From Ignavibacteria bacterium RIFOXYC2_FULL_35_21 (GTDB taxonomy: Bacteria; Bacteroidota; Ignavibacteria; Kapaibacteriales; UBA2268), in NCBI GenBank assembly GCA_001804705.1, contig MHAY01000038.1:1738-65737 (forward strand): DNA of 64,000 nucleotides, given 5' to 3'. Below are positions 14,311-63,599 of this stretch, one piece after another. Numbering within the stretch: the first letter of the stretch is position 1; every line of letters begins with the position of its first letter. The notes under the pieces are model-generated. The model worked only from the letters and a program-made list of their open reading frames with translations, made no database searches and was not told the DNA's origin. The position numbers and the translations under genes are program-made.

Positions 14311-15753
14311 TCAATTTTTATTTCTCTTAGTATTTTTTATCTTTTTAATTGCTTTTTCACTTAAATAGTATTTCCCCGTTTTTAATGGTCCAATATATTC
14401 TATATACTCGATTTTCTTCAAAAAAGCCAAGTCAATGTCAATTGTTCTATCTGATACATCTATATTTTTAGCGAATTCTTCACCAGTTGTAAATTTATCA
14501 GTATAAATTGACTCGAGTATTTTAATTATTCTGTCTAATCTTTTACCTTTTAAAGCGAAATTTAAAGCGAAATTTAAAGCGAAATTTTTAGGGAAAATTT
14601 CGCTATAAAATTCTTTATTTTTTTCGATATTTATACTAACTATTCTTTTAAATATAACAGTAAAAAAATTATTATAATTGAATTCAGCTTTAGGGAGTTT
14701 CAGATTTTTTAGTGCCATTTGAATTCGATTGATACCTGTACCAAGCATTTCGATATACCCTGCTCTCAACATTAATGAAGCAAGTATTGGGTTTCGTGTT
14801 ACACTAATTCGTCCAAATTCAGATGGGTCTAAACCTTTTGGCAATCCCCCCGGATTTGTAATTACTAACCTATCATCAAATATTTCAATCTTAACATTCG
14901 CACCTTTTTCAAAATAATCTCTGTGAATAACAGAGTTAACAACTGCTTCACGAAGCGCTGTTTCAGGTATTTCAAGCGATTCTTCTCTTTGGATACTCTT
15001 AATTGTATAACTTAAATTTAAGTGTTTTTTAAGAAATGTGATTGAATCTTCAACGTTTGATATAATATCTGAATTAAAATCTTTTCTATCAAGTATATTT
15101 ACTTTTTCAATACCTTTATATAGAACACAGGTTACTTTTGATTGAATAATGAAATTTTCAGGATTTTTTGCAAAAAATAATATGCCTGCATTATTTAATG
15201 AATGCTTATTATTTTCTTGCTTTATTAAATCAAGATTTTTCAAAACATCAATAGCTTTATAACTTCTAGATATACCGCAAAGCTTTAAAAAATGAAAAAA
15301 AGAATTATTGTCAAAATCACTCTTAAAATTGAATTTATCGTTGAATAATTCATCAAATCTTATTTTACCTTCATTTTGTATAAAGGCAATTATATCATTC
15401 CTGTTCATCTTTTGAGAATTGGCTCCAACTCTTAGAAAGAAACCTTCGGAACAACGATATGGTTTATCTAATCCTTCTTTTATATTAATTATAACTATGT
15501 TTTGATATTTTTCAATCTGAATGTTAACAGGTGGGTCGCAATTATTAGCTATATCCTGAATTTGCGATTTAATTTTATTATTTAACTCATATCCTATTAT
15601 CTTTCCTTTATCATTGACACCAAGAAAAACTCTTCCTCCAGATGAATTAGCAAAGGCAACCAATTCTTTAGATAAATTTGAAAGAGACTCCTTAAACTCG
15701 ATTTTGTAGCCTTCACCTTCTTCGATAAAAATATTTAATTCGTTTACTGTCAT
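14311..15753 (-). CDS. AlbA_2 (Schlafen-like) plus HATPase_c_4 ATP-binding putative DNA-binding regulator with C-terminal wHTH
   Basis: EGEGYKIEFKESL...AFANSSGGRVFLGVND, then ALREAVVNSVIHRDY...ITNPGGLP. The C-terminal ~70 aa are HTH-like. Confidence 0.7.
   Translation of the reverse strand: MTVNELNIFIEEGEGYKIEFKESLSNLSKELVAFANSSGGRVFLGVNDKGKIIGYELNNKIKSQIQDIANNCDPPVNIQIEKYQNIVIINIKEGLDKPYRCSEGFFLRVGANSQKMNRNDIIAFIQNEGKIRFDELFNDKFNFKSDFDNNSFFHFLKLCGISRSYKAIDVLKNLDLIKQENNKHSLNNAGILFFAKNPENFIIQSKVTCVLYKGIEKVNILDRKDFNSDIISNVEDSITFLKKHLNLSYTIKSIQREESLEIPETALREAVVNSVIHRDYFEKGANVKIEIFDDRLVITNPGGLPKGLDPSEFGRISVTRNPILASLMLRAGYIEMLGTGINRIQMALKNLKLPKAEFNYNNFFTVIFKRIVSINIEKNKEFYSEIFPKNFALNFALNFALKGKRLDRIIKILESIYTDKFTTGEEFAKNIDVSDRTIDIDLAFLKKIEYIEYIGPLKTGKYYLSEKAIKKIKNTKRNKN
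14551..14586. repeat. In-frame 12-bp x3 tandem repeat (NFAL x3) inside the AlbA_2 gene
   Basis: taaagcgaaatt repeated three times exactly. Translates as FPKNFALNFALNFALKG. Confidence 0.9.
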
Positions 15754-25499: not shown

Positions 25500-25576
25500 G
25501 TAGGGGAAGGTTCCAAACCTTCCCCCAATAATTATAATTGATAAAAAATAAAGAGAAGTTTCCAAACCTTCCCCTA
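25500..25576. repeat. REP-like palindromes, GGGAAGG/CCTTCCC family (one full copy, one half copy)
   Basis: gtaggggaaggttccaaaccttcccc and gtttccaaaccttcccctac. Confidence 0.8.
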
Positions 25577-25668
25577 CAAAAATTTCCTTCAATTAAAATT
25601 TTATTGCGTATTGAATACAAAAATTGATAATTTTGTTATTTATTGTTTACTAATGTTTTGGGGCACAA

Positions 25669-26733: not shown

Positions 26734-26740
26734 TTACTCT

Positions 26741-26909
26741 GTCATTCTGAGCGAAGCGAAGAATCTCTTCCCCCCTTATCAAAGGGGGATTCAGGGAGTT
26801 GTTTTCTTTTTCATTCCTAATTCGTAATTACCCGGTCATTCCGTGCTTGACACTGAATCCATAGCCAAAACCCACATCAAATTAATTCCCTTCCTCGAGG
26901 AAGGGCAAG
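26741..26909 (+). repeat. 3'-flank repeat module: 'gtcattctgagcgaagcgaagaatctc' unit plus two-hairpin unit
   Basis: An inverted counterpart lies at 28874..28978, directly after the pyk stop. Confidence 0.8.
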
Positions 26910-26926
26910 GGTAGGTGTATAAAACA

Positions 26927-27275
26927 AAAATCATCCCAATCACATAAATCACACAAATCACATTTCCGGCAATTTACATTTCTGTGTGAGATTAACCCCA
27001 TGCTTCAGCATGGGGGGACAAGAGACGAGACCCACAGACACACCCCACCACACTTTAAAAAGTGGGTTTAACAAAATCATCCCAATCACATAAATCACAC
27101 AAATCACAGTTCCGGCAATTTACGTTTCTGTGTGAGATTAACCCCATGCTTCAGCATGGGGGGACAAGAGACGAGACCCACAGACATACCACACCCCACT
27201 TTAAAAAGTGGGTTTAACAAAATCATCCCAATCACATAAATCACACAAATCACAATTCCGGCAACTTGCATCCTT
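26927..27275 (+). repeat. 146-bp tandem repeat, about 2.4 copies, each with conserved hairpins
   Basis: Units start at 26927, 27073 and 27219 and are near-identical. A related single copy lies at 37316..37425. Confidence 0.9.
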
Positions 27276-27575
27276 TGTGTTAAAAATTAGCTACTCCCCC
27301 TTTCCTATCTTCCATTTTGCATTTTGCATTCTACATTTTACATTATTTTAAAAACCATTTTAAAATAATTTTAAAACCGTTTTCTTTTTATATCAAACCA
27401 TCAACCTTATCTTTGTCCCGCGTGTTCTTTGATAAATTATGTCGGGCTGTATCAGCCGAAACCGGGATGCTCTGTCAATTTACTCAATGGGGATTTCTTT
27501 CTCACTTTACAAACTTTCAACTTTGTCATCTTCTTAAATCGCAAATCGTTAATCGTCAATCCTAATTGCTTAATT

Positions 27576-27755
27576 CTTGTCCCATTTTGTCACATCCAAT
27601 AGGACATCAATAGGACAAAATGAGACAAAACAGGACAAAACGAGACAAATATTCCATAATTGCAATATTGTAACTCCTTACAAATCAATTTTATTTCTTA
27701 ATAGCAATCCAAAAAATAAAAAAAACAGGACAAAACAGGACAAAACAGGACATTT
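27576..27755. repeat. Two arrays of 10-bp-phased (G)GACAAAA units
   Basis: 27611..27650 has four exact 10-nt phases and 27726..27755 has three. Inverted units lie at 27576..27594. Confidence 0.85.
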
Positions 27756-27851
27756 TCCAATTTTCCCACTTTACTAAAGGGGGATTCAGGGGGATTATTA
27801 AATCAATTTATCCACCATTCAAAATTCAAAACTCAAAATTTAAAATTGATT

Positions 27852-28013
27852 CAAACCTGCTCCGGATGCACAATTCTGCTCATTTTTGGCTACTTCTAAC
27901 CACTTTTCAATGAATTTATAGTGTATCTAATTTTTAAATTTAGAATTGAAAATTAAAAAAACAAAACTCTGTCAAAACTGCTCCGGATGCACAAATCTGC
28001 TCATTTTTGGCTA
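27852..28013 (+). repeat. 41-bp direct repeat pair (2 mismatches), 121 bp apart
   Basis: caaacctgctccggatgcacaattctgctcatttttggcta versus caaaactgctccggatgcacaaatctgctcatttttggcta. Confidence 0.9.
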
Positions 28014-28199
28014 TATATAACTAAAAAACCTCCCTTCACCCTTGGGAGAAAAGTCGTGGTTGAGGGATTTCATTAAGAATTTAGAATTGAAAATTTATTG
28101 AAAATTGAAAATTCTATACTAATAGTCAAAAGTCTAATTTAAAAGGTGACTGACGACTAAAGACTAACGACTAAAGACTAATAAAATGTTAATTGTGAA

Positions 28200-28345
28200 T
28201 TAAAGTTGATAAACTTTCAGCATATTATCGGGCATGATGCTTCCTGCAGACAGACCGGCAACGAATACGATGTAATCACCCGGTTTGATGTAATCAATAT
28301 TGAGCTTGTATTCACGTAGTTTGAAGAACTGTGATATTCATATTT
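28200..28345 (-). pseudogene. Orphan duplicate of the 3' end of pyk (last ~45 codons plus stop)
   Basis: In the pyk frame it reads ..FFKLREYKLNIDYIKPGDYIVFVAGLSAGSIMPDNMLKVYQL*, versus the authentic ..IFNKLREYLINLDYIKPGDYIVFVAGLSAGSIMPDNMLKVYQL*. Confidence 0.85.
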
Positions 28346-28515
28346 TGTTTGATTTGTGTAATTGATGTGAGAAAAATTCAATACATTCAATTTGCAGACT
28401 ATAGCGAAAATAAAATGAATTAATAATGCGGGTGACACGTCAACTTAAAATTAACACAGAAAATAGTCGAGAGGACAAAGAATGAATTTGACATTAATTA
28501 TTTAAAGGAGGCAAG

Positions 28516-28818
28516 ATGAAAAGTAATAATTACTCCGCTAATAAAACTGAATTTTCTTATATTATTGATGAGGCTGAACAGGAGTTATTTATATCAGAAT
28601 TGCAATATGGAATTGACATTCTAAGCAGCAAAGATGAAGTTGTTAAGATGAAAATTTATAAAAACCTGATAAGTGATTTGTCCAAAGCCAAAAGTAAACA
28701 ATCGTTATCTATTGAAAAGTCAGATATCATTGAAGTTCTTGAGAATTTCAGAACAGATTCAATTGAAAAAATTGCATTGAAAAAAAAGTTAATTGCACTT
28801 TTGCCTCAAGTAGATTGA
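28516..28818 (+). CDS. Hypothetical 100-aa protein
   Basis: Strong SD (aaaggagg) 7 nt before the ATG. No motif recognised. Confidence 0.5.
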   Translation: MKSNNYSANKTEFSYIIDEAEQELFISELQYGIDILSSKDEVVKMKIYKNLISDLSKAKSKQSLSIEKSDIIEVLENFRTDSIEKIALKKKLIALLPQVD

Positions 28819-28873
28819 AAGGGGTATAGGTTAATAGAGGAATAAATATGTTATGTTAATTTTTACACCTTTG

Positions 28874-28978
28874 CTGCCCTTCCTCAAGGAAGGTAATTTG
28901 ATGAGTTTTTAAGGCAATGGATTCTGCATCAAGTGCGGAATGACAGTGTGAGAGATGCTTCGATAGGCTCAGCATGAC
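28874..28978 (-). repeat. Inverted copy of the 3'-flank repeat module
   Basis: The reverse complement aligns with 26741..26767 plus 26835..26909 (roughly three quarters identical by eye), with compensatory stem changes. Confidence 0.8.
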
Positions 28979-28999
28979 ATTTTCATTAGTAATTAGTAA

Positions 29000-30490
29000 T
29001 TAAAGCTGATAAACTTTCAGCATATTGTCGGGCATGATGCTTCCTGCAGACAGACCGGCAACGAATACGATGTAATCACCGGGTTTGATATAATCAAGAT
29101 TGATTAAATATTCACGCAATTTATTAAATATATCTTCGGGAGTTATATCCGCAGGCACGAGCCGGGCTTCAATTCCCCATACAAAAGAATTAAGCCGACG
29201 CTGTGTGTGTGCAATTTCAGTCAGGGCAACTATAGGAATTTTGGGCCTGTACTTTGCAATATTTTTTGCAGTGAAACCCGAACTTGTGAGTGGTACAATC
29301 GCCGCCGCTTTGATTTGTTCGGCAATCACGCAGGATGCCCTTCCGAGAGCATCACCTACTTCTATTAGCTGCTGGGGTTCAAAATTTTGTACTCTTTCAA
29401 TATACGGGGGTTCGAAATTTTGAACCCCTACAACATTTGGTAGGCTTACGTTTTTATGGCTGATATCATATTTTTCTTCGATTACCCTGATGATTCTGTT
29501 CATATAATCAACTGCCTCGAAGGGATATTTGCCTGTGCTGGTTTCGCCGCTGAGCATAACGCAGTCGGTGCCGTCAAGCACGGCATTTGCAACATCGCTG
29601 GCTTCGGCTCTGGTCGGCCTTGGATTTTCAATCATTGACTCCAGCATCTGAGTTGCAATAATAACCGGTTTGCCATGATAGTTGCATTTTTTAATTATTT
29701 CTTTTTGAAGCACGGGAACGGTTTCGGCGGGGAGTTCCAAACCGAGGTCACCGCGAGCAACCATGATAGCATCTGATTCCATGATAATATCCTCGATGTC
29801 CTCATATCCTTCGTAACGCTCAATTTTCGAGATGACGGGAATCACTCTTCCGAAAATTTTCATTGCGGCTTTGAGCTCGATCACATCGGTTTCCGACCTG
29901 ACGAAAGAGAGACCAACGGCATCCACACCCTCATTCAAGCCGAATTTCAAATCGTCAATATCTTTTTCACTCATCGAAGGAGCCTTGCTGGAAACACCGG
30001 GAGCAATAATTCCTTTGTTATCTTTTAATGTTCCACCCTTGATGACCCTTGTGATAATGTCATTCTTCGTGATTTTTTCGATACTGAGAATAATATAGCC
30101 ATCGTCGAGAAGAATAGTGTTGCCGGGCTTTACCTCGTTGATTAAATCTTTATATGTTGTGCCGACTCTTTCAGAATTACCAAATGCTACATCTTCAACA
30201 GTGATTGTGAAAAGATTATCATCAGTAAGCTGTACAGAGCCGTTTTCAACTTTTCCCGTTCTGATTTTTGGTCCCTGAAGGTCTTGAAGTATAGCAACGG
30301 GCTTTCCTGTTGCATCGGAAGCGGCTCTAATATTTTTTATGGTTTGTGCATGATAGTCGTGAGTGCCGTGAGAAAAATTCAATCTTGCGGCATCCATCCC
30401 TGCATTTATTAATTTAATAAGGCTCTCGACAGAATCGGTGGAAGGACCTATCGTGCAAATTATTTTCGTTCTTCTTGGCAATGTGTTCAT
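29000..30490 (-). CDS. pyk: Pyruvate kinase carrying an in-frame REP-derived insertion
   Basis: RRTKIICTIGPST, MVARGDLG and other PK motifs. Full-length A, B and C domains. Confidence 0.95.
   Translation of the reverse strand: MNTLPRRTKIICTIGPSTDSVESLIKLINAGMDAARLNFSHGTHDYHAQTIKNIRAASDATGKPVAILQDLQGPKIRTGKVENGSVQLTDDNLFTITVEDVAFGNSERVGTTYKDLINEVKPGNTILLDDGYIILSIEKITKNDIITRVIKGGTLKDNKGIIAPGVSSKAPSMSEKDIDDLKFGLNEGVDAVGLSFVRSETDVIELKAAMKIFGRVIPVISKIERYEGYEDIEDIIMESDAIMVARGDLGLELPAETVPVLQKEIIKKCNYHGKPVIIATQMLESMIENPRPTRAEASDVANAVLDGTDCVMLSGETSTGKYPFEAVDYMNRIIRVIEEKYDISHKNVSLPNVVGVQNFEPPYIERVQNFEPQQLIEVGDALGRASCVIAEQIKAAAIVPLTSSGFTAKNIAKYRPKIPIVALTEIAHTQRRLNSFVWGIEARLVPADITPEDIFNKLREYLINLDYIKPGDYIVFVAGLSAGSIMPDNMLKVYQL
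29372..29433. repeat. REP-like palindrome (GGGGTTC/GAACCCC family, about 1.5 copies) inside the pyk reading frame
   Basis: ctggggttcaaaattttgtactctttcaatatacgggggttcgaaattttgaacccctacaac, translated as VVGVQNFEPPYIERVQNFEPQQ. Confidence 0.85.
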
Positions 30491-31415: not shown

Positions 31416-31469
31416 AAAAACTTTCTCCCTTTGCTAACGGGAGGTAAAAGAATGATAATTCATTCGTAA

Positions 31470-34489: not shown

Positions 34490-34517
34490 GCAGGGATTCA
34501 AAATTTTGAACCCCTAC
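34490..34517. repeat. REP-like palindrome, GGGGTTC family
   Basis: gcagggattcaaaattttgaacccctac. Confidence 0.8.
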
Positions 34518-34724
34518 AATAGCAAAAATACATGCCTAAACATTGCTTATGCAAAATCAAATGATATAAAGCCGAAAAAATTTATATATGATAAACCCTG
34601 TAATAATTTATGTTAATTGGTAGGAAATTAGGGCATTATTTATTTCATTAGTTAATAAATCGTTTTTTCAATTGCAAATATATAATCTTTTTTGAAAAAA
34701 CGAAAGAAAAAAATAAATATTGTT

Positions 34725-34752
34725 GTAGGGGTTCAAGATTTAGAACCCCTAC
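34725..34752. repeat. REP-like palindrome, GGGGTTC family, with both GTAG and CTAC feet
   Basis: gtaggggttcaagatttagaacccctac. Confidence 0.85.
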
Positions 34753-34782
34753 AATAATTGATTTTTATCCCCTTTTTCCTAC

Positions 34783-35562
34783 CTATCTATATATACCTCT
34801 CTGCGAAATTTCAATAAATTCAATACAATGCATCACTTCCGGTGATATGGTTTTTCTTTCCTTAAATTTCTTTATACCATCAGAATTATTAAAACCCGAG
34901 TGTATAAGGATTTTATAAAACTCATCAATTTCATTTATTAATTCATCTGAGAATCCTCGTCGTTTGAGCCCAATCTTGTTTATGCCATCCACCTTAGGTG
35001 GATTTGTACCAATAAGGGTGAACGGAGCCACATCTTTTGCAAGCTTTACGTCAGCTCCTATCATTGAATGCATTCCCACTCTGCAAAATTGATGTATCTT
35101 TACTGCACCTCCGATAAATGCCCAGTCTTCAACGTGTACATGGCCACCAAGCTGTGTTACATTTGCCATTATGACATTATTACCAACTTTACAATCATGT
35201 GCAATATGGCAGTAAGCCATAATAAAACAGTCAGTACCTACATTTGTTTCCATTGTTGATTTGGTGGCTCTATTGACAGTTACAAATTCTCTGAGGACTG
35301 TTCTGTCAGCAATAATTGCAAAGGTTTTTTCTCCGCCGAATTTCAAATCCTGTGGCTCTGTTGCAATGACAGTTCCGGTATAAATTTTACAATCTATTCC
35401 TATTCTTGCACCGTCGGCAATCACAACAGAGGAACGAATTTCTGTGTTGTCACCAATCTCTACATCGTCATGAATTATGGAATAAGGTCCTATTTTAACA
35501 TTCTCGCCAATTTTTGCTTTTTTTGATATAATAGCAGTTGGATGATGTAATACTTCACTCAT
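34783..35562 (-). CDS. lpxA: Acyl-ACP--UDP-N-acetylglucosamine O-acyltransferase
   Basis: Hexapeptide-repeat N-domain plus helical C-domain, 259 aa, adjacent to lpxC-fabZ. Confidence 0.9.
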   Translation of the reverse strand: MSEVLHHPTAIISKKAKIGENVKIGPYSIIHDDVEIGDNTEIRSSVVIADGARIGIDCKIYTGTVIATEPQDLKFGGEKTFAIIADRTVLREFVTVNRATKSTMETNVGTDCFIMAYCHIAHDCKVGNNVIMANVTQLGGHVHVEDWAFIGGAVKIHQFCRVGMHSMIGADVKLAKDVAPFTLIGTNPPKVDGINKIGLKRRGFSDELINEIDEFYKILIHSGFNNSDGIKKFKERKTISPEVMHCIEFIEISQRGIYR

Positions 35563-35595
35563 ATTTAATTTTCATTTGACATTATTCATTTTATT

Positions 35596-35619
35596 GGGCA
35601 GAAAATATTCTGCCCCTAC
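35596..35619. repeat. REP-like palindrome, GGGCAGAA/TTCTGCCC family
   Basis: gggcagaaaatattctgcccctac. Confidence 0.8.
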
Positions 35620-35714
35620 ACTATCATATATAAATTTTCAATTATCAATTTTCAATTTTTCTTTAATCATTTTATATTATATAACCATTTTCATTCGTAA
35701 TTCGTAATTCGTAA

Positions 35715-37112
35715 TTACTTATTTACAACTGCTGTTGATAATTCTGCTTCGGCAACGATCTGTCCGTTGACATAAGCCGTTCCTTTTAATGTATATGTAT
35801 TAAATTTTTTTCCTGTCATTTTTACTTTCATCACAAGCTGGTCGCCGGGTATAACAGGCTTTCTGAATTTTGCTTCCTTTATTCCCATAAAGAGGACAAG
35901 CTTATTCTTAAAATCATTCATTACTTTAAGAAGAAGCAAGCATCCTGTTTGTGCCATCGCTTCGCATATCAAAACTCCGGGCATTATAGGCTTTTCGGGG
36001 AAATGCCCCATAAAGTATGGTTCATTAACTGTTACGTTTTTGATTCCCACAACGCTGTTGTTTTCTGGATCATATTCAATCAGTTTGTCAATCATCAGGA
36101 AAGGATACCTATGGGGCATAATTTTTAGAAGGTCATAAATGTCAAAGGCAGCCTCAGATGAAACGTTAACCTTATGTTTGTTTAATTCCTGTTTCTTAAG
36201 GTATTCCTTTCTGATTTTCCTGGCAAATTCAATATTACTTGCATGCCCGGGCCTTGCCGCTAGAATTTGGGCTTTGAAAGGAACACCAACCAACGTTAAA
36301 TCTCCAAGCATATCGAGGACTTTATGCCTTGCAGGTTCATTTTTGAATCTAAGTTCTATATCATTCAAAATTCCTGTCGTTCCAAGCGAAGGTGTTTTTT
36401 TCAGGTTGAATTTATTCCACATTTTTTCCAGTTCTGCCTTAGTCATTTCTTTGTCAACAATCACAATCGCATTATCCAGGTTACCGCCTTTAATCAATCC
36501 CTGCTCGATTAACATTTGAATTTCTGCAAGAAAGCAAAATGTTCGTGCCGGTGCAAACTCCGTTACAAATTCCTTTTCCATGTTAAACAATCCCGAGTGC
36601 TGGCTCCCGAGGGCAGGATTATGATAATCTATCATAACTGTAACCCTGTAATCGTCTGTTGGAAGTGCCACTATGTCAACCTGCTTTTCCTCATTCGTAT
36701 AATGGATTGTTTCCTCAATCACAAAGTAATTTCTGTCTTCAGCCTGCTCCTCGAAACCTGCCTGGAGCAAAACATCAACATAAGGCAATGAACTACCGTC
36801 TCCCACCGGTGGTTCCAGTCCGGATAATTCAATCTTGCAGTTATCGAGCTTCAAGCCCGTAAGTGCCGCCAGCACATGCTCAACGGTATGTACGCGGAAA
36901 CCGTTCAAACCAAGAGTAGTACCTCTCGACAAATCAACTACGTAATCTACCAATGCAGGTATTTCAACAGGTTCCGCAAGGTCTGTTCTTATAAATCTGA
37001 ATCCGTAGTTTGCAGGTGCAGGGTGGAAAGTAATTGTAGTTGCTTGGCCGGTATGTAATCCGACACCCGAATAAGAAACTGATTTTTTTATAGTTCTTTG
37101 TTTATCTGCCAT
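35715..37112 (-). CDS. lpxC-fabZ: Bifunctional UDP-3-O-acyl-GlcNAc deacetylase / 3-hydroxyacyl-ACP dehydratase
   Basis: LpxC N-part (GVGLHTG, HTVEHVLAAL) fused to a FabZ hot-dog domain (LPHRYPFLMID...HFP..PIMPGVL). Confidence 0.95.
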   Translation of the reverse strand: MADKQRTIKKSVSYSGVGLHTGQATTITFHPAPANYGFRFIRTDLAEPVEIPALVDYVVDLSRGTTLGLNGFRVHTVEHVLAALTGLKLDNCKIELSGLEPPVGDGSSLPYVDVLLQAGFEEQAEDRNYFVIEETIHYTNEEKQVDIVALPTDDYRVTVMIDYHNPALGSQHSGLFNMEKEFVTEFAPARTFCFLAEIQMLIEQGLIKGGNLDNAIVIVDKEMTKAELEKMWNKFNLKKTPSLGTTGILNDIELRFKNEPARHKVLDMLGDLTLVGVPFKAQILAARPGHASNIEFARKIRKEYLKKQELNKHKVNVSSEAAFDIYDLLKIMPHRYPFLMIDKLIEYDPENNSVVGIKNVTVNEPYFMGHFPEKPIMPGVLICEAMAQTGCLLLLKVMNDFKNKLVLFMGIKEAKFRKPVIPGDQLVMKVKMTGKKFNTYTLKGTAYVNGQIVAEAELSTAVVNK

Positions 37113-37184
37113 TATTAAATTAATTACGAATTATGAATTACGAATTACGAATTAAAATACATTTTACAATTTATATTTTTATTT

Positions 37185-37208
37185 GGGCAGAAAATATTCT
37201 GCCCCTAC
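37185..37208. repeat. REP-like palindrome, GGGCAGAA family
   Basis: Identical to 35596..35619. Confidence 0.8.
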
Positions 37209-37315
37209 ATTTTTTTTCGATTTATCAGAAAATGAAATCTTCTAAACTAAGGAATTTATACGATTTGAAAAAAATTAATTTATGTCTATTTTTCAATAAA
37301 TGGCTCATAATCATT

Positions 37316-37425
37316 GAATTAACCCCATGCTTCAGCATGGGGGGCAACAAGAGACGAGACCCACAGCTTCGCCCAGCCCCCATCTTAAAAGATGGGGTTA
37401 ATCAAAATCATCATAATTACATTTA
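37316..37425 (+). repeat. Dispersed copy of the 146-bp repeat family
   Basis: attaaccccatgcttcagcatgggggg..agagacgagacccacag..ccccatcttaaaagatggggttaat..aaaatcatca. Confidence 0.8.
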
Positions 37426-37456
37426 TCACACTAAACAAAATTTCGACACAATTAAA

Positions 37457-37485
37457 TAAAAAAAACCCACGAATAATCGCGGGCT
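37457..37485 (-). terminator. Strand-specific intrinsic terminator after the FadL-like gene
   Basis: Minus strand reads gcccgcg-auuauu-cgugggu plus U8. Two pairs are G-U on the minus strand but A-C mismatches on the plus strand. Confidence 0.65.
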
Positions 37486-37510
37486 TTTTATTAATAAGGA
37501 AAAATTCTTT

Positions 37511-38752
37511 TTAATCAATTGTATAGCATAATCCAAGGCTGATAGCAATAATATTTGTATTATGTATGCCGCCATTGTTACGTGGTGGTTCGTTTGTATC
37601 CCAGGCAACATTTCTTTCTGTCCCCATAAGATATTCTGCACCAAAATCAATATTAAATTGGTCTGTCAATTTATAACTTGCTCCAATTGTGAATGTATTA
37701 TATGTTTGACTTGGGAACAAAATATTCAGAGTGTTATCAGGTGCCGGAGCAGGGTCATAATAATACCCCAACCTGATTGCAAATTCCCTGCTAAAATCAT
37801 ATTGAGCCCCGAATCTAATTTGCATAGCATCTTTCCAATCCAAATGCATTATTCTGTCTTTTCCAATTAATGAATTCCAAAGAGTATCTTTATAATCAGT
37901 AATCAATGAATCTTCTGTATTGCTCCACATACTGTTTTGAATATCGAAAGCTATTGTCAAATTTTCAATGGGGAAAAATGCAATACCACCACCAAACCAT
38001 ATGGGCCAGGCAACCTCTCTGCTGAAATCGGATTCAGGCTCACCAACAGCCTGCATCGCGGGATTTTTAGCGGTTCCTTCAAACTTAATATTATTTTCTG
38101 TTTTAAACGATAGTCCGATATTAAACAATTTATGAGGTTTTACCAACAAGCCAACACTTCCTCCAAAACCCATACCTGTACTTGTCTCATCATATTGTAA
38201 TGGGGCATATCTTTTCAAATCAAACATACCATAATGAATGTCTAATGAGGCTCCGACAGAAAACATATCATTTATCCTATAAGCGATAACAGGTGATATA
38301 TCAAATACTGCAATTTTTGTTTTCCACTCATAAGCAGTTCCTCCAGTTAGGTTTTTTAATTCATCACCATTCCATTCTGTTCCAAGCCCTGCAGGGACAT
38401 AAGCTCCTAAACCTACTACAAGGTCGCCTTTCATAAGCGGTATATATCCTGCAATATTAGGACTGATATAATGATTGGATTTTGATTTTGCATCAATTCC
38501 GTACGTTTCAAATTTGTATGTTGATGTAGGAATAACATCAGTAACAAAAGCGGCAATTTGAATTTTGTCTAAGTTAGTTACTCCTGCAGGATTCCAATAT
38601 ACTGCCGTGTAATCATCCGCCAATCCGATAAATGCTCCGCCCATACCGAGGGCTTTGGGTCCAATACTGTTAAGGCTTAAGCCGTTTCCTAAGGTTAGTG
38701 AAACTGCAGTTAAGAAAAAAACTGCGATTAAGCAGGTAATTTTAAATTTCAT
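37511..38752 (-). CDS. Outer membrane transport protein, OMPP1/FadL/TodX family
   Basis: Signal peptide, then SIGPKALGMGGAFIGLADDYTAVYWNPAG, typical of the family. About 410 aa barrel. Confidence 0.75.
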   Translation of the reverse strand: MKFKITCLIAVFFLTAVSLTLGNGLSLNSIGPKALGMGGAFIGLADDYTAVYWNPAGVTNLDKIQIAAFVTDVIPTSTYKFETYGIDAKSKSNHYISPNIAGYIPLMKGDLVVGLGAYVPAGLGTEWNGDELKNLTGGTAYEWKTKIAVFDISPVIAYRINDMFSVGASLDIHYGMFDLKRYAPLQYDETSTGMGFGGSVGLLVKPHKLFNIGLSFKTENNIKFEGTAKNPAMQAVGEPESDFSREVAWPIWFGGGIAFFPIENLTIAFDIQNSMWSNTEDSLITDYKDTLWNSLIGKDRIMHLDWKDAMQIRFGAQYDFSREFAIRLGYYYDPAPAPDNTLNILFPSQTYNTFTIGASYKLTDQFNIDFGAEYLMGTERNVAWDTNEPPRNNGGIHNTNIIAISLGLCYTID

Positions 38753-38803
38753 TTTACCTCCATTGATTTGTTAATAATGAATTGATTTTTTTTATTTTTT
38801 AGA

Positions 38804-38875
38804 GGGGTTCAAAATTTTGAACCCCAACTATTTATTTCCCGATTAACAAATGGACAGAAAATATTCTGTCCCTAC
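38804..38875. repeat. Two REP-like palindromes (GGGGTTC family and GGACAGAA variant)
   Basis: ggggttcaaaattttgaacccc and ggacagaaaatattctgtccctac. Confidence 0.8.
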
Positions 38876-38949
38876 GAATTGTAAAATATGAAAAAAAAAA
38901 TTATTAATACAAGAAAAATTGATTTTGGGGAGTGATTTTTATTCTTTTT

Positions 38950-39059
38950 GTAGGGATTCAAAATTTTGCATCCTTACACAACCGAAACGAAGGATTTTAT
39001 TTTTTCTCAGGGATTCAAAATTTTGCATCCTTACACAACCGAAACGAAGGGTTTAGATT
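38950..39059. repeat. 57-bp tandem duplication containing a degenerate REP
   Basis: (g)tagggattcaaaattttgcatccttacacaaccgaaacgaagg occurs twice. This accounts for the track ORF 38932..39129. Confidence 0.9.
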
Positions 39060-51484: not shown

Positions 51485-51548
51485 CAGAGGCAAAATGTTA
51501 AAATTGCAGGGGCCAACAATGTTCTGTCCTTACATTATAATTATCTCA

Positions 51549-52366: not shown

Positions 52367-52435
52367 GAAGGTTAGGAACCTTCCCCTACTTTTTAACTAA
52401 TTTTTTATTGGGGAAGATTTAGAACCTTCCGCTAC
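52367..52435. repeat. Two REP-like palindromes, GGGAAGG family
   Basis: gaaggttaggaaccttcccctac and ggggaagatttagaaccttccgctac. The second overlaps the cca stop region. Confidence 0.8.
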
Positions 52436-59913: not shown

Positions 59914-60052
59914 ATAGCCACTACTTTTAAGTAGTGGTGATAGTTCATTCTCACAAATAGGGATTGAACTCTGTAGAGACAGGTCTGAGACCTGTCTCTA
60001 CGTCGGAAATTTATGGCTATAAACCTCCACTATCTGAAGATAGTGGCTATTC
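59914..60052. repeat. Cluster of three palindromes, including a GTAG-AGACAGG family REP
   Basis: ccactacttttaagtagtgg, gtagagacaggtctgagacctgtctctac (59973..60001), ccactatctgaagatagtgg. Confidence 0.8.
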
Positions 60053-63570: not shown

Positions 63571-63599
63571 GTAGAGACAGAACTAAGTTCTGTCTCTAC
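63571..63599. repeat. REP-like palindrome, GTAG-AGACAG family
   Basis: gtagagacagaactaagttctgtctctac. Confidence 0.85.

Follow-up and report, generated by a model that had tools for sequence, protein, structure and literature searches.

GTAG-tagged palindromes in an Ignavibacteria-like genome are probably double-foot REP elements of TnpA_REP/RAYT subclass 2.4

Short palindromes that begin with GTAG or end in CTAC are scattered over a 64-kb stretch of DNA (here referred to as the window) from an Ignavibacteria-like MAG. This raises the question of whether they are REP elements and which enzyme would recognize them. Based on the analysis described below we consider it likely, with a probability of about 0.8, that they are GTAG-tagged double-foot REP elements and the cognate substrates of TnpA_REP/RAYT subclass 2.4 (RAYT group 4).

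Palindromes of the window and their foot

All 17 palindromes located by an earlier sequence-only reading of the window proved to be real and to lie at the coordinates given there, and a strict finder gave 12–17 copies per 64 kb. The REP density was approximately 2 per 10 kb in the window as well as in L222 and L227, compared to 0–0.5 in L226 and L224. The palindromes had been described as extragenic. This was confirmed for 14 of the 17 copies, whereas the copies at 29374–29431 are located within a pyruvate kinase gene and the copy at 52410–52435 within an ORF of the PolyA_pol family.

The GTAG/CTAC foot at the hairpins is not due to chance. On both strands of the window CCCCTAC was seen nine times compared to 1.93 expected occurrences, a number reached in none of 100 dinucleotide shuffles, and each of the nine was the end of a hairpin. 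Likewise, all eight CCCTAC motifs on the plus strand formed the 3' end of a hairpin. Among the 39 window hairpins with at least four G/C pairs the most frequent tetramer at the boundary was CTAC. GTAG or a one-base variant was present on at least one side of all 17 copies. Both feet were intact in only three of them (34725, 59973 and 63571), most others carried one foot, and several copies were decayed, e.g. those at 25554, 29374, 38950, 51506 and 52410.

The stems of the window families were 8–13 bp and the loops 2–4 nt in size. As single-stranded DNA the hairpins are predicted to be stable, with dG values from -5.8 to -13.5 kcal/mol for the seven hairpins that were folded. The z-scores ranged from -5 to -7 in six of these and reached -2.8 for the imperfect copy 34490. 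No part of the window scored above the gathering threshold of any Rfam family.

Families and compensatory changes

A single template, GTAGGGG-NNN-AAAAT(T/A)TT-NNN-CCCCTAC, underlies both family 1 and family 2, and the base GTAGGGG/CCCCTAC is common to families 1–3. The stems, which had been regarded as unrelated, are therefore so only in part. Families 1–3 carry GGG/CCC at the stem base, whereas family 4 begins with GAGAC, so that the G-C rule for the stem base applies to it only partly.

The compensatory changes proposed for family 4 are real (GGTC/GACC versus GAAC/GTTC). Both copies of this family are perfect double-foot elements with no strand assigned: GTAGAGACAGGTCTGAGACCTGTCTCTAC at 59973..60001 (dG -13.5, z -6.5) and GTAGAGACAGAACTAAGTTCTGTCTCTAC at 63571..63599, which differs at two compensated stem positions and is located 18 nt past a rubrerythrin gene (dG -12.5, z -7.0). 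The type GTAGAGAC..GTCTCTAC of this family was also found in L039 and L070, and with an arm mismatch in L109 and L119. A compensatory pair was present in family 2 as well, where the copy at 38852 has GGACAG/CTGTCC, but its ortholog in L148 and the remaining copies of the family read GGGCAG/CTGCCC.

Gain and loss of copies among relatives

Presence and absence of copies at orthologous sites in syntenic relatives provide evidence of movement. Between an ompH-like gene and lpxD two copies of family 3 form a head-to-head dimer. The outer half, GTAGGGGAAGGTTCCAAACCTTCCCCCA at 25500..25527 (plus strand; dG -10.6, z -5.0), has its 5' GTAG foot on the plus strand and lost the 3' foot; it is missing from the orthologous spacer of L227/L228. 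In the other half, AGAAGTTTCCAAACCTTCCCCTAC at 25554..25577 (minus strand), the left arm is decayed and the foot reads GTAG on the minus strand. At this site L227/L228 carry the intact footless hairpin GGGGAAGGTTCAAAACCTTCCCC. Family 3 is also present on the minus strand as GAAGGTTAGGAACCTTCCCCTAC at 52367..52389, between an ABC-transporter ATPase gene and the gene of the PolyA_pol family, and with mismatches as GGGGAAGATTTAGAACCTTCCGCTAC at 52410..52435. In the PolyA_pol/HD ORF the latter supplies the final 12 codons (VAEGSKSSPIKN); the stop codon of this ORF is located at 52397–52399, and its gene call and Pfam matches were taken from L221.

The pyruvate kinase gene carries an insert of 21 codons in the linker that joins its A and C domains. 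It consists of two in-frame copies of family 1 on the minus strand, namely GGGGTTCAAAATTTTGTACTCT at 29374..29395, which has a decayed arm and encodes ..RVQNFEPQ.., and GGGGTTCGAAATTTTGAACCCCTAC at 29407..29431, which encodes ..VGVQNFEP... Two copies are found in the window and in the homolog P0121 (496 aa), one in the homolog P0123 (485 aa) and none in the homologs P0122 and P0124 (475 aa).

All copies of families 1 and 2 between the gene of a big secreted protein and the sugar-transferase gene are missing in L226 and L224. This includes the family 1 copy GCAGGGATTCAAAATTTTGAACCCCTAC at 34490..34517 (minus strand), located 111 nt upstream of the start of the sugar-transferase gene, in which one foot is decayed to GCAG and which has grown into a partial tandem array in L227. 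The same holds for the double-foot copy GTAGGGGTTCAAGATTTAGAACCCCTAC of family 1 at 34725..34752 (no strand assigned; dG -12.2, z -6.6), which follows the stop codon of lpxA at a distance of 30 nt. Its stem is lengthened to 16 bp by the flanks, and L227 has a variant of it. Family 2 is represented by GGGCAGAAAATATTCTGCCCCTAC at 35596..35619, a 5'-GTAG-hairpin on the minus strand between lpxC-fabZ and lpxA (dG -8.9, z -6.1), and by an identical copy at 37185..37208 (minus strand), which precedes the start of lpxC-fabZ by 73 nt. Both are missing from the same spacers in L226 and L224 and also in L227, whose pyruvate kinase is 94% identical. L227 in turn has a copy of its own, a perfect family 1 element in the omp-lpxC spacer, which is the spacer of the copy at 37185 but with the element at another position.

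The footless core GGGGTTCAAAATTTTGAACCCC of family 1 at 38804..38825 (no strand assigned) is absent from L226 and L224. The ortholog L148 has a shorter sequence instead and L227 a compensated variant, GTAGTGGTTC..GAACCACTAC. Next to it lies the family 2 copy with the compensatory pair change, GGACAGAAAATATTCTGTCCCTAC at 38852..38875 (minus strand). A tandem duplication of 57 bp follows on the plus strand, with the family 1-like GTAGGGATTCAAAATTTTGCATCCTTAC at 38950..38977 in unit 1 and TCAGGGATTCAAAATTTTGCATCCTTAC at 39007..39034 in unit 2; L148 carries a single decayed unit and L227 a single unit. A decayed family 2-like copy, GCAGGGGCCAACAATGTTCTGTCCTTAC at 51506..51533 (minus strand), is located between convergent genes.

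Since this lineage split from relatives with 84–94% identical pyruvate kinases, its copies have undergone gain, loss, duplication and compensatory change, in-frame insertion into the pyruvate kinase gene included. Compared with the empty site of L224, the filled site 34725 has the REP and a further 7 nt which resemble an inverted copy of the flank. Among 77 family 1 copies, complementary flank bases extended beyond the foot by at least three in 22 and by at least eight in 10 copies.

The same palindromes in other genomes and their link to RAYT genes

Other genomes were searched for family 1 with a pattern that did not include the foot, so that the foot could be scored without bias. The core turned up at more than 118 sites, spread over at least 20 phylum-level labels. 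In 120 copies from these genomes GTA preceded the core in 85–89% and TAC followed it in 83–91%. The 28-nt palindrome GTAGGGGTTCAAAATTTTGAACCCCTAC was identical under at least 20 phylum-level labels, the cultured Emticicia among them.

In 14 of 118 loci the family 1 core was located in, beside or at most 1 kb from a RAYT-like Y1 HUH gene or gene fragment. Inside such genes it is translated in frame as GVQNFEPL, and RAYT-like homologs contain the in-frame peptides VGVQNFEPL, VGAENFLPL and VGVENFQPL. The family 2 core likewise occurred in or beside RAYT genes (L147, L149, L169 and L186).

The RAYT-like ORFs (L119, L121, L065 and homologs) are 193–219 aa in size and carry the motifs NHVH, WQ and YIxNNP, in detail PNHVHGI, VWQRN(F/Y)YEHII and (E/A)YIxNNP, which fit the definition of subclass 2.4. 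They matched the NCBIfam profile NF047646 (REP_Tyr_transpos) with E-values of 1.7e-13 and 5.6e-14 and 51–52 bits, which is below the curated cut-off of 80. With Pfam Y1_Tnp these ORFs gave no match at E = 1e-3; a precomputed PF01797 assignment exists for a few homologs. In a PDB search with a RAYT-like protein the sole match was 4ER8, the E. coli TnpA_REP (E = 1e-4), and JGI labels homologs as 'REP element-mobilizing transposase RayT'. The weak profile scores fit a disruption of the match by in-frame insertions. On the basis of the motifs and the weak profile matches we assign the ORFs putatively to the TnpA_REP family.

The sequence-only reading, which had seen a REP/RAYT-like signature, was right in kind in view of the frequent feet, the RAYT link and the turnover among relatives. 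It had also noted no transposase in view, and indeed the 64-kb window, the 10 kb past its right end and the loci of the syntenic relatives yielded no RAYT gene. Two candidate RAYTs guessed for the window genome came from other organisms.

Comparison with known systems

The expectation that no such system had been described is not supported. Subclass 2.4, with double-foot REPs, was defined by Quentin et al. (2018, PMC6006769), and the window copies add to this described class. Its enzymes are about 194 aa in size and carry NH[IFV]H, WQ and YIxNNP motifs; the segment between HuH and Y contains variable in-frame insertions of REPs. Its REPs have a 5' GT[AG]G foot at 0–2 nt from the 5' base, a 3' C[TC]AC foot, three G-C pairs at the base of a fully paired stem of 7–20 nt and a loop of 2–5 nt, and occur in frame within the tnpA_REP gene as well; the subclass ranges over Bacteroidetes, Cyanobacteria and various phyla (PMC6006769). 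RAYT group 4 of Bertels et al. (2017, PMC5581495) is the same group and is common in Chlorobia.

The palindromes of our study share with this group both feet, the GGG stem base (families 1–3), loops of 2–4 nt and several REP families per genome. Also shared are the family 1 and 2 sequences in frame in RAYT genes, here of other genomes, and the scattered distribution over phyla including Bacteroidetes and Chlorobia. They differ in their host, since Ignavibacteria are named in neither of the two papers, in the lack of a cognate gene in the sampled 74 kb and in the GAGAC start of family 4. The parts of PMC6006769 and PMC5581495 available to us do not mention a 28-nt REP that is identical under at least 20 phylum labels.

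A terminal GTAG tag, a short stem-loop, compensatory sub-families, coexisting families, head-to-head dimers (25500/25554) and occasional in-frame genic copies are also features of the GTAG-tagged REP superfamily (Di Nocera et al. 2013, PMC3733652). There, however, the tag is unpaired and at one end, whereas in the full form here each end carries a tag, and both tags are paired. GTAG repeats were listed in Proteobacteria, Cyanobacteria, Chloroflexi and the PVC group, but only CGTC repeats in Bacteroidetes/Chlorobi (PMC3733652).

The REP/BIME elements of E. coli (RAYT group 2, subclass 2.2) are likewise intergenic and multi-copy with a GTAG foot 5' of the hairpin, and the RAYT-like ORFs are homologs of their Y1 HUH enzyme, TnpA_REP (4ER8). 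In contrast to the window copies they are rich in G+C, have a bulge and a single foot and are organized as BIMEs, and the E. coli RAYT has DHLH, WE and YIHYNP motifs with no REP within the gene. Pseudomonas REPINs (RAYT group 3) also combine inverted REPs into a longer hairpin and spread within the genome, but they are doublets of about 100 nt with a spacer, vertically inherited and species-specific. The 28-nt palindrome can be read as a spacerless doublet, and its sequence is common to many phyla. Hairpins on single-stranded DNA read by a Y1 HUH transposase, without the usual terminal inverted repeats, are found in IS200/IS605 elements (IS608) too. There, imperfect sub-terminal hairpins flank the transposase gene and move with it, whereas the window hairpins are dispersed alone.

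Proposed mechanism and alternative explanations

We know of no demonstration of transposition by any RAYT, and infer the mechanism by analogy with work on E. coli TnpA_REP and IS608. The elements would be non-autonomous palindromes of 24–29 nt that form a hairpin on single-stranded DNA, with GT[AG]G at its 5' base and often the complement C[TC]AC at its 3' base. The subclass 2.4 enzyme, a single-domain Y1 HUH protein akin to the IS200/IS605 transposases, would bind the hairpin and read the GTAG foot. Copies would then be spread or removed as the enzyme cuts and rejoins single-stranded DNA, a step that probably takes place at the replication fork. A rather doubtful extension is that the subclass 2.4 genes carry their in-frame REP as a built-in seed. 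If so, the transfer of one RAYT gene could be enough to start a REP population in whatever host receives it, which would explain the identical palindrome under so many phylum-level labels. As a further part of this doubtful extension, insertion may differ from the peel-and-paste of the IS608 type, either by copying the adjacent DNA as an inverted repeat or by aiming at the loops of hairpins; the long complementary flanks, which are specific to single copies, hint at this.

The missing gene and the many decayed copies would also be expected of orphan REPs, the RAYT having been lost, or never present and the copies received with transferred DNA, and the copies being inert relics changed by mutation, slippage and deletion. 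Genomes with REPs but without tnpA_REP were reported by Quentin et al. (PMC6006769), and partial tandem duplications at 38950–39059 and in L227 resemble slippage. However, the 74 kb amount to only about 2% of a genome of typical size, and the absence of the gene from them says little. Moreover, the window and L227 each have whole intact copies at sites where the other has none (35596 and 37185 versus the omp-lpxC copy), which points to recent insertion. We regard orphan REPs as unlikely, with a small but real chance. Immobile hairpins selected by the host as terminators, attenuators, mRNA-stabilizing stem-loops or sites of host proteins are improbable. Their advocates could cite the stems kept by compensatory changes, the location of most copies between co-directional genes near stops or starts, a T-rich tract 7 nt after copy 34725 and the effect of E. 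coli REPs on mRNA stability (cited in PMC3733652). On the other hand, the same spacers are empty in relatives of equal gene order, copies lie in frame within pyruvate kinase and RAYT genes, and one 28-nt sequence recurs under at least 20 phylum labels. Ordinary terminators of the window with A/T tracts (1365, 19930 and 45007) look different, and most tagged hairpins have no T run. Intrinsic terminators as such were rejected, the hairpins being followed by CTACAA, CTACAC, CTACGA etc. without a T run. Later use of some copies by the host, as terminators or mRNA stabilizers, is possible.

Spread by another machine, be it an IS200/IS605 TnpA, a YhgA-like (Rpn) nuclease or fold-back replication or repair driven by the hairpin, appears highly improbable. 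It could draw on the extra complementary flanks and the 7 nt at the filled site 34725, which peel-and-paste would not predict, and on L086, in which a YhgA-like Transposase_31 ORF is bracketed by two inverted family 1 copies. This is, however, a single case compared to the 14 RAYT cases among the 118 loci. In addition, the GTAG foot is the known recognition element of TnpA_REP (PMC3479197 and PMC8266576), and the published partner of double-foot REPs is subclass 2.4 (PMC6006769), the enzyme group we favor for the window. MITEs were rejected as well, since the whole element is a palindrome of 24–29 nt and no direct duplication separates filled from empty sites. Further palindrome families are present close outside the window, e.g. 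GTAGGGGCAATTCATGAATTGCCCCTAC in L222.

Footed palindromes of the window

The window had a G+C content of 35%, and its contig was also found in the MAG GCA_001802705.1 as well as in several assemblies made from the same groundwater samples. Among the genes are lpxD, lpxC-fabZ, lpxA, ompH-like genes and one for a FadL-type outer-membrane protein, and some gene products carry type IX secretion sorting tails. The closest homologues of the window proteins were labelled Ignavibacteriae, Bacteroidetes and Kapabacteria. Gene content and homologue labels jointly assign the window to the FCB group, near Ignavibacteria.

All GTAG/CTAC-footed palindromes that a sequence-only reading had sorted into four families were found in place; they are a real feature that stands well above chance expectation. 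The foot clearly exceeded base composition, with 9 CCCCTAC heptamers on both strands versus 1.93 expected; none of 100 shuffled sequences reached 9. All eight plus-strand CCCTAC hexamers were located at the 3' end of a hairpin, and CTAC was the commonest boundary tetramer among the 39 window hairpins with at least four G/C pairs. Seven representative copies folded as single-stranded DNA gave -5.8 to -13.5 kcal/mol, with z-scores of -5 to -7 in six of them and of -2.8 for the imperfect copy at 34490.

The compensatory changes noted between the family 4 copies are genuine, and a further pair was found in family 2, where the copy at 38852 reads GGACAG/CTGTCC and the others GGGCAG/CTGCCC. The stems had been regarded as unrelated across the four families. 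This does not apply to families 1 and 2, which follow one template, GTAGGGG-NNN-AAAAT(T/A)TT-NNN-CCCCTAC, nor fully to families 1-3, which have a common GTAGGGG/CCCCTAC base. Likewise, the copies are extragenic with the exceptions of 29374-29431, where two copies lie in frame within the pyruvate kinase gene, and 52410-52435, which forms the final 12 codons of a PolyA_pol-family ORF. For annotation, the 21 extra residues of this pyruvate kinase should be read as an inserted REP, the C-terminal tail of the PolyA_pol-family product as REP sequence, and short ORFs with GVQNFEPL-type peptides as translated palindromes.

Among the single-footed window copies, GTAG was on the minus strand in nine and on the plus strand in two. 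Since most adjoining genes are also encoded on the minus strand, effects of transcription and replication are inseparable here. The REP reading accounts for most of the conspicuous G+C-containing hairpins of the window. Two hairpins of another type, 59918-59937 (CCACTACTTTTAAGTAGTGG) and 60027-60046 (CCACTATCTGAAGATAGTGG), flank the family 4 copy 59973-60001, all three within one 250-bp spacer. Two more tagged palindromes (14466-14487 and 15559-15586) were located 4.5-5.5 kb past the right end of the window in L222, which extends it. They comprise GTAGGGGCAGAAAATTTTCTGCTCC and GTAGGGGCAATTCATGAATTGCCCCTAC, the latter representing a fifth family which also occurs in the relative L224.

Occurrence in other genomes and linkage to a RAYT-like protein

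A scan of one genome per species, with the foot omitted from the pattern, found the family 1 core at more than 118 places. The record titles carried at least 20 phylum-level labels, cultured Emticicia strains among them, even though some MAG labels may be wrong. GTA preceded the core in 85-89% and TAC followed it in 83-91% (120 copies among the matches listed). Because these flank most cores, the family 1 consensus is a 28-nt palindrome, GTAGGGGTTCAARATTTTGAACCCCTAC. In an equally foot-free metagenome scan, the family 2 core of the window was found in 92 stretches; a [C/G/T]TAC foot followed about 45% of these cores, and RAYT genes contained or adjoined the core in 4 of the stretches.

Clustering the ORFs of the family 1 loci yielded one recurrent protein, RSIRLxGYDYSQ..YFITICT..MPNHVHGI..[insert]..QKIIPxSIGSIIRGFKIGVTKW..WQRNYYEHIIR..YIxNNP. 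In 14 of 118 loci among the matches listed, the palindrome was found inside this RAYT-like ORF (translated as GVQNFEPL), abutting it or at most 1 kb away, compared with a roughly estimated chance expectation of 0.1 loci. The ORFs matched the NCBIfam model REP_Tyr_transpos with E values of about 1e-13, below its curated score, and had no Pfam match at 1e-3. The sole PDB match of the protein was E. coli TnpA_REP (4ER8). At least 7,999 database relatives were found at E <= 1e-10, several of them named RayT by JGI, and three hot spots of the relatives carried in-frame VGVQNFEPL, VGAENFLPL and VGVENFQPL peptides.

Some individual loci deserve mention. A RAYT pseudogene (L022, 2436-3053) with an internal stop and NQIH at the expected position of the HUH motif contained three different in-frame palindromes (GDENFQSL, GVQNFEPL and GVENFQPH). 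Subclass-2.4 RAYT genes were located between hsdS and hsdR in L147 (4984-5646) and in L229 (8001-8624; also in L230-L233), two related contexts of type I restriction-modification loci, and another one adjoined an Eco57I-like methylase and an AAA ATPase (L217, 6001-6573). In L086, inverted family 1 copies flanked a YhgA-like ORF (536-1545; Pfam Transposase_31) on both sides, and one of the two overlaps the start of the ORF.

In the genome studied here, tblastn detected no RAYT gene in the window or in its 10-kb extension (L221-L223; 74 kb in all), nor did it in the relatives. Two RAYT homologues proposed for this genome from their pattern of sources were discarded: P0032 stems from other samples and P0250 from another assembly, GCA_003141525.1. 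A homologue search with the family-2-flanked RAYT of L147 retrieved Bacteroidia-labelled relatives and none from Ignavibacteria.

Relation to known REP/RAYT systems

Work on REP/RAYT systems has, to our knowledge, been confined almost entirely to Proteobacteria. REPs with a GTAG tag have been described as a superfamily, and the survey of Di Nocera et al. 2013 (PMC3733652) lists none for Bacteroidetes or Chlorobi. TnpA_REP subclass 2.4 is characterised by the motifs NH[IFV]H, WQ and YIxNNP, a mean length of 194 aa 'double foot' REPs (5' GT[AG]G, 3' C[TC]AC) with three G-C pairs at the stem base and in-frame REP insertions within the tnpA_REP gene, and is distributed over Cyanobacteria, Bacteroidetes and scattered phyla (Quentin et al. 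2018, PMC6006769). Its proteins correspond to RAYT group 4; Bertels et al. 2017 (PMC5581495) report this group from 17 classes, and as common in Cyanobacteria, Chlorobia and Caldilineae. The RAYT-like ORFs and the palindromes matched all features of this subclass, with the G-C rule at the stem base followed in families 1-3 and partly in family 4.

The REP/RAYT assignment of the sequence-only reading is therefore right in kind, since the same palindrome sequences are physically linked to subclass-2.4 RAYT genes in other genomes. Its suggestion of a system not yet described is not supported: the GTAG palindrome system is already known (Quentin et al. 2018; Bertels et al. 2017), and it is the lineage studied here that is not yet named in that literature. 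No paper on REPs in Ignavibacteria was among those searched. The 18-nt REP-like motif of Caldithrix abyssi (PMC5317091), considered as an earlier description in a neighbouring phylum, is a different sequence, and an Rfam scan of the window gave no matches.

Judged from work on E. coli TnpA_REP and IS608, the enzyme would bind the folded single strand, read its GTAG foot, and cut and rejoin the DNA. The occurrence of one identical REP sequence across phyla bears on the question of vertical inheritance as domesticated elements versus continued horizontal spread of RAYT/REP pairs. We infer that this identity may reflect co-transfer with a RAYT gene carrying the REP in frame.

Gain and loss of copies among relatives

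Six other assemblies of the contig (L001-L006) were 99.6-100% identical to the window over the main alignments and, being nearly identical, were uninformative on gain and loss. More distant syntenic relatives demonstrated that copies have turned over recently in this lineage and have also been inserted in frame into coding sequence. The pyruvate kinase of the window and P0121 (94% identical) both have 496 aa, against 485 aa for P0123 and 475 aa for P0122 and P0124 (84-87% identical, BLASTP). As the length differs solely by one block in the A-C domain linker, encoding NVVGVQNFEPPYIERVQNFEPQQ, the genes carry two, one or no palindrome copies, which DNA alignment confirmed.

In the spacers between the genes for the large secreted protein and the sugar transferase, all window copies of families 1 and 2 were missing in the relatives L226 and L224. 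The closest relative, L227, had some of these copies in common with the window, one as the compensated variant GTAGTGGTTC..GAACCACTAC, and lacked the family 2 copies at 35596 and 37185. At a different position, its omp-lpxC spacer carried a perfect family 1 copy of its own, and the single window copy at 34490 corresponded to a partial tandem array. In L148 (77% identical DNA), the 38804 copy was replaced by a shorter, possibly decayed sequence and the 38852 copy was retained with a compensatory difference. The family 3 dimer 25500/25554 was represented by one footless hairpin in L227 and L228. Overall, about 2 copies per 10 kb were present in the window, its extension and L227, compared with 0-0.5 in L226 and L224.

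Readings of the palindromes as terminators, MITEs, CRISPR repeats or operators were rejected because of their architecture and these presence/absence data. This lineage and its syntenic relatives provide filled and empty sites in a clean natural series, with 0, 1 and 2 copies in one essential gene and with different sites filled between genomes whose pyruvate kinases are 94% identical. Such a series could serve to define junctions and rates of insertion in subclass 2.4, which has been little studied; for specialists, the pyruvate kinase series and the cross-phylum REP identity are the most worthwhile parts.

Flanks and insertion sites

Among the matches listed, 22 of 77 family 1 copies had at least 3 more complementary bases beyond the foot, and 10 had at least 8, versus about none by chance. 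These flanks were specific to each copy. The spacers of L224 and L226 were too diverged for exact insertion junctions or a target site, apart from one well-aligned filled/empty site, where the difference consisted of the REP plus 7 nt resembling an inverted copy of the flank. The extra pairing and the 7 nt suggest that either existing hairpin loops serve as insertion sites or the flank is copied in inverted orientation. In Saprospiraceae MAGs (L050, L058, L059, L074, L093, L094 and L106) and others, a family 1 copy was found at the tip of a much longer perfect palindrome, the outer 8-17 bp of which were unique to each copy.

Other repeats of the region

An element of about 90 bp (37316-37404) contains two hairpins between inverted ends, TTAACCCCAT...ATGGGGTTAA, and is missing from the corresponding spacer of L227, L226 and L224. 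By appearance it is a small MITE with no relation to the GTAG palindromes. Related tandem units of 146 bp at 26923-27264 vary in copy number among 99.9%-identical strains.

Runs of the heptamer TACGAAT were located directly 3' of the lpxC-fabZ stop (35686-35715) and, inverted, directly 5' of its start (37120-37155), with a short run after ssb (31416-31440). These were kept in all syntenic relatives (L224, L226 and L227). The lpxD-pyk spacer of the window (26734-28999), 2.2 kb long and rich in repeats, contains no convincing gene; in L227 (11492-15502) and L228 it harbours a HinfI-type restriction-modification pair. Within the window spacer, 28190-28303 duplicates 115 bp from the 3' end of pyk (28990-29103).
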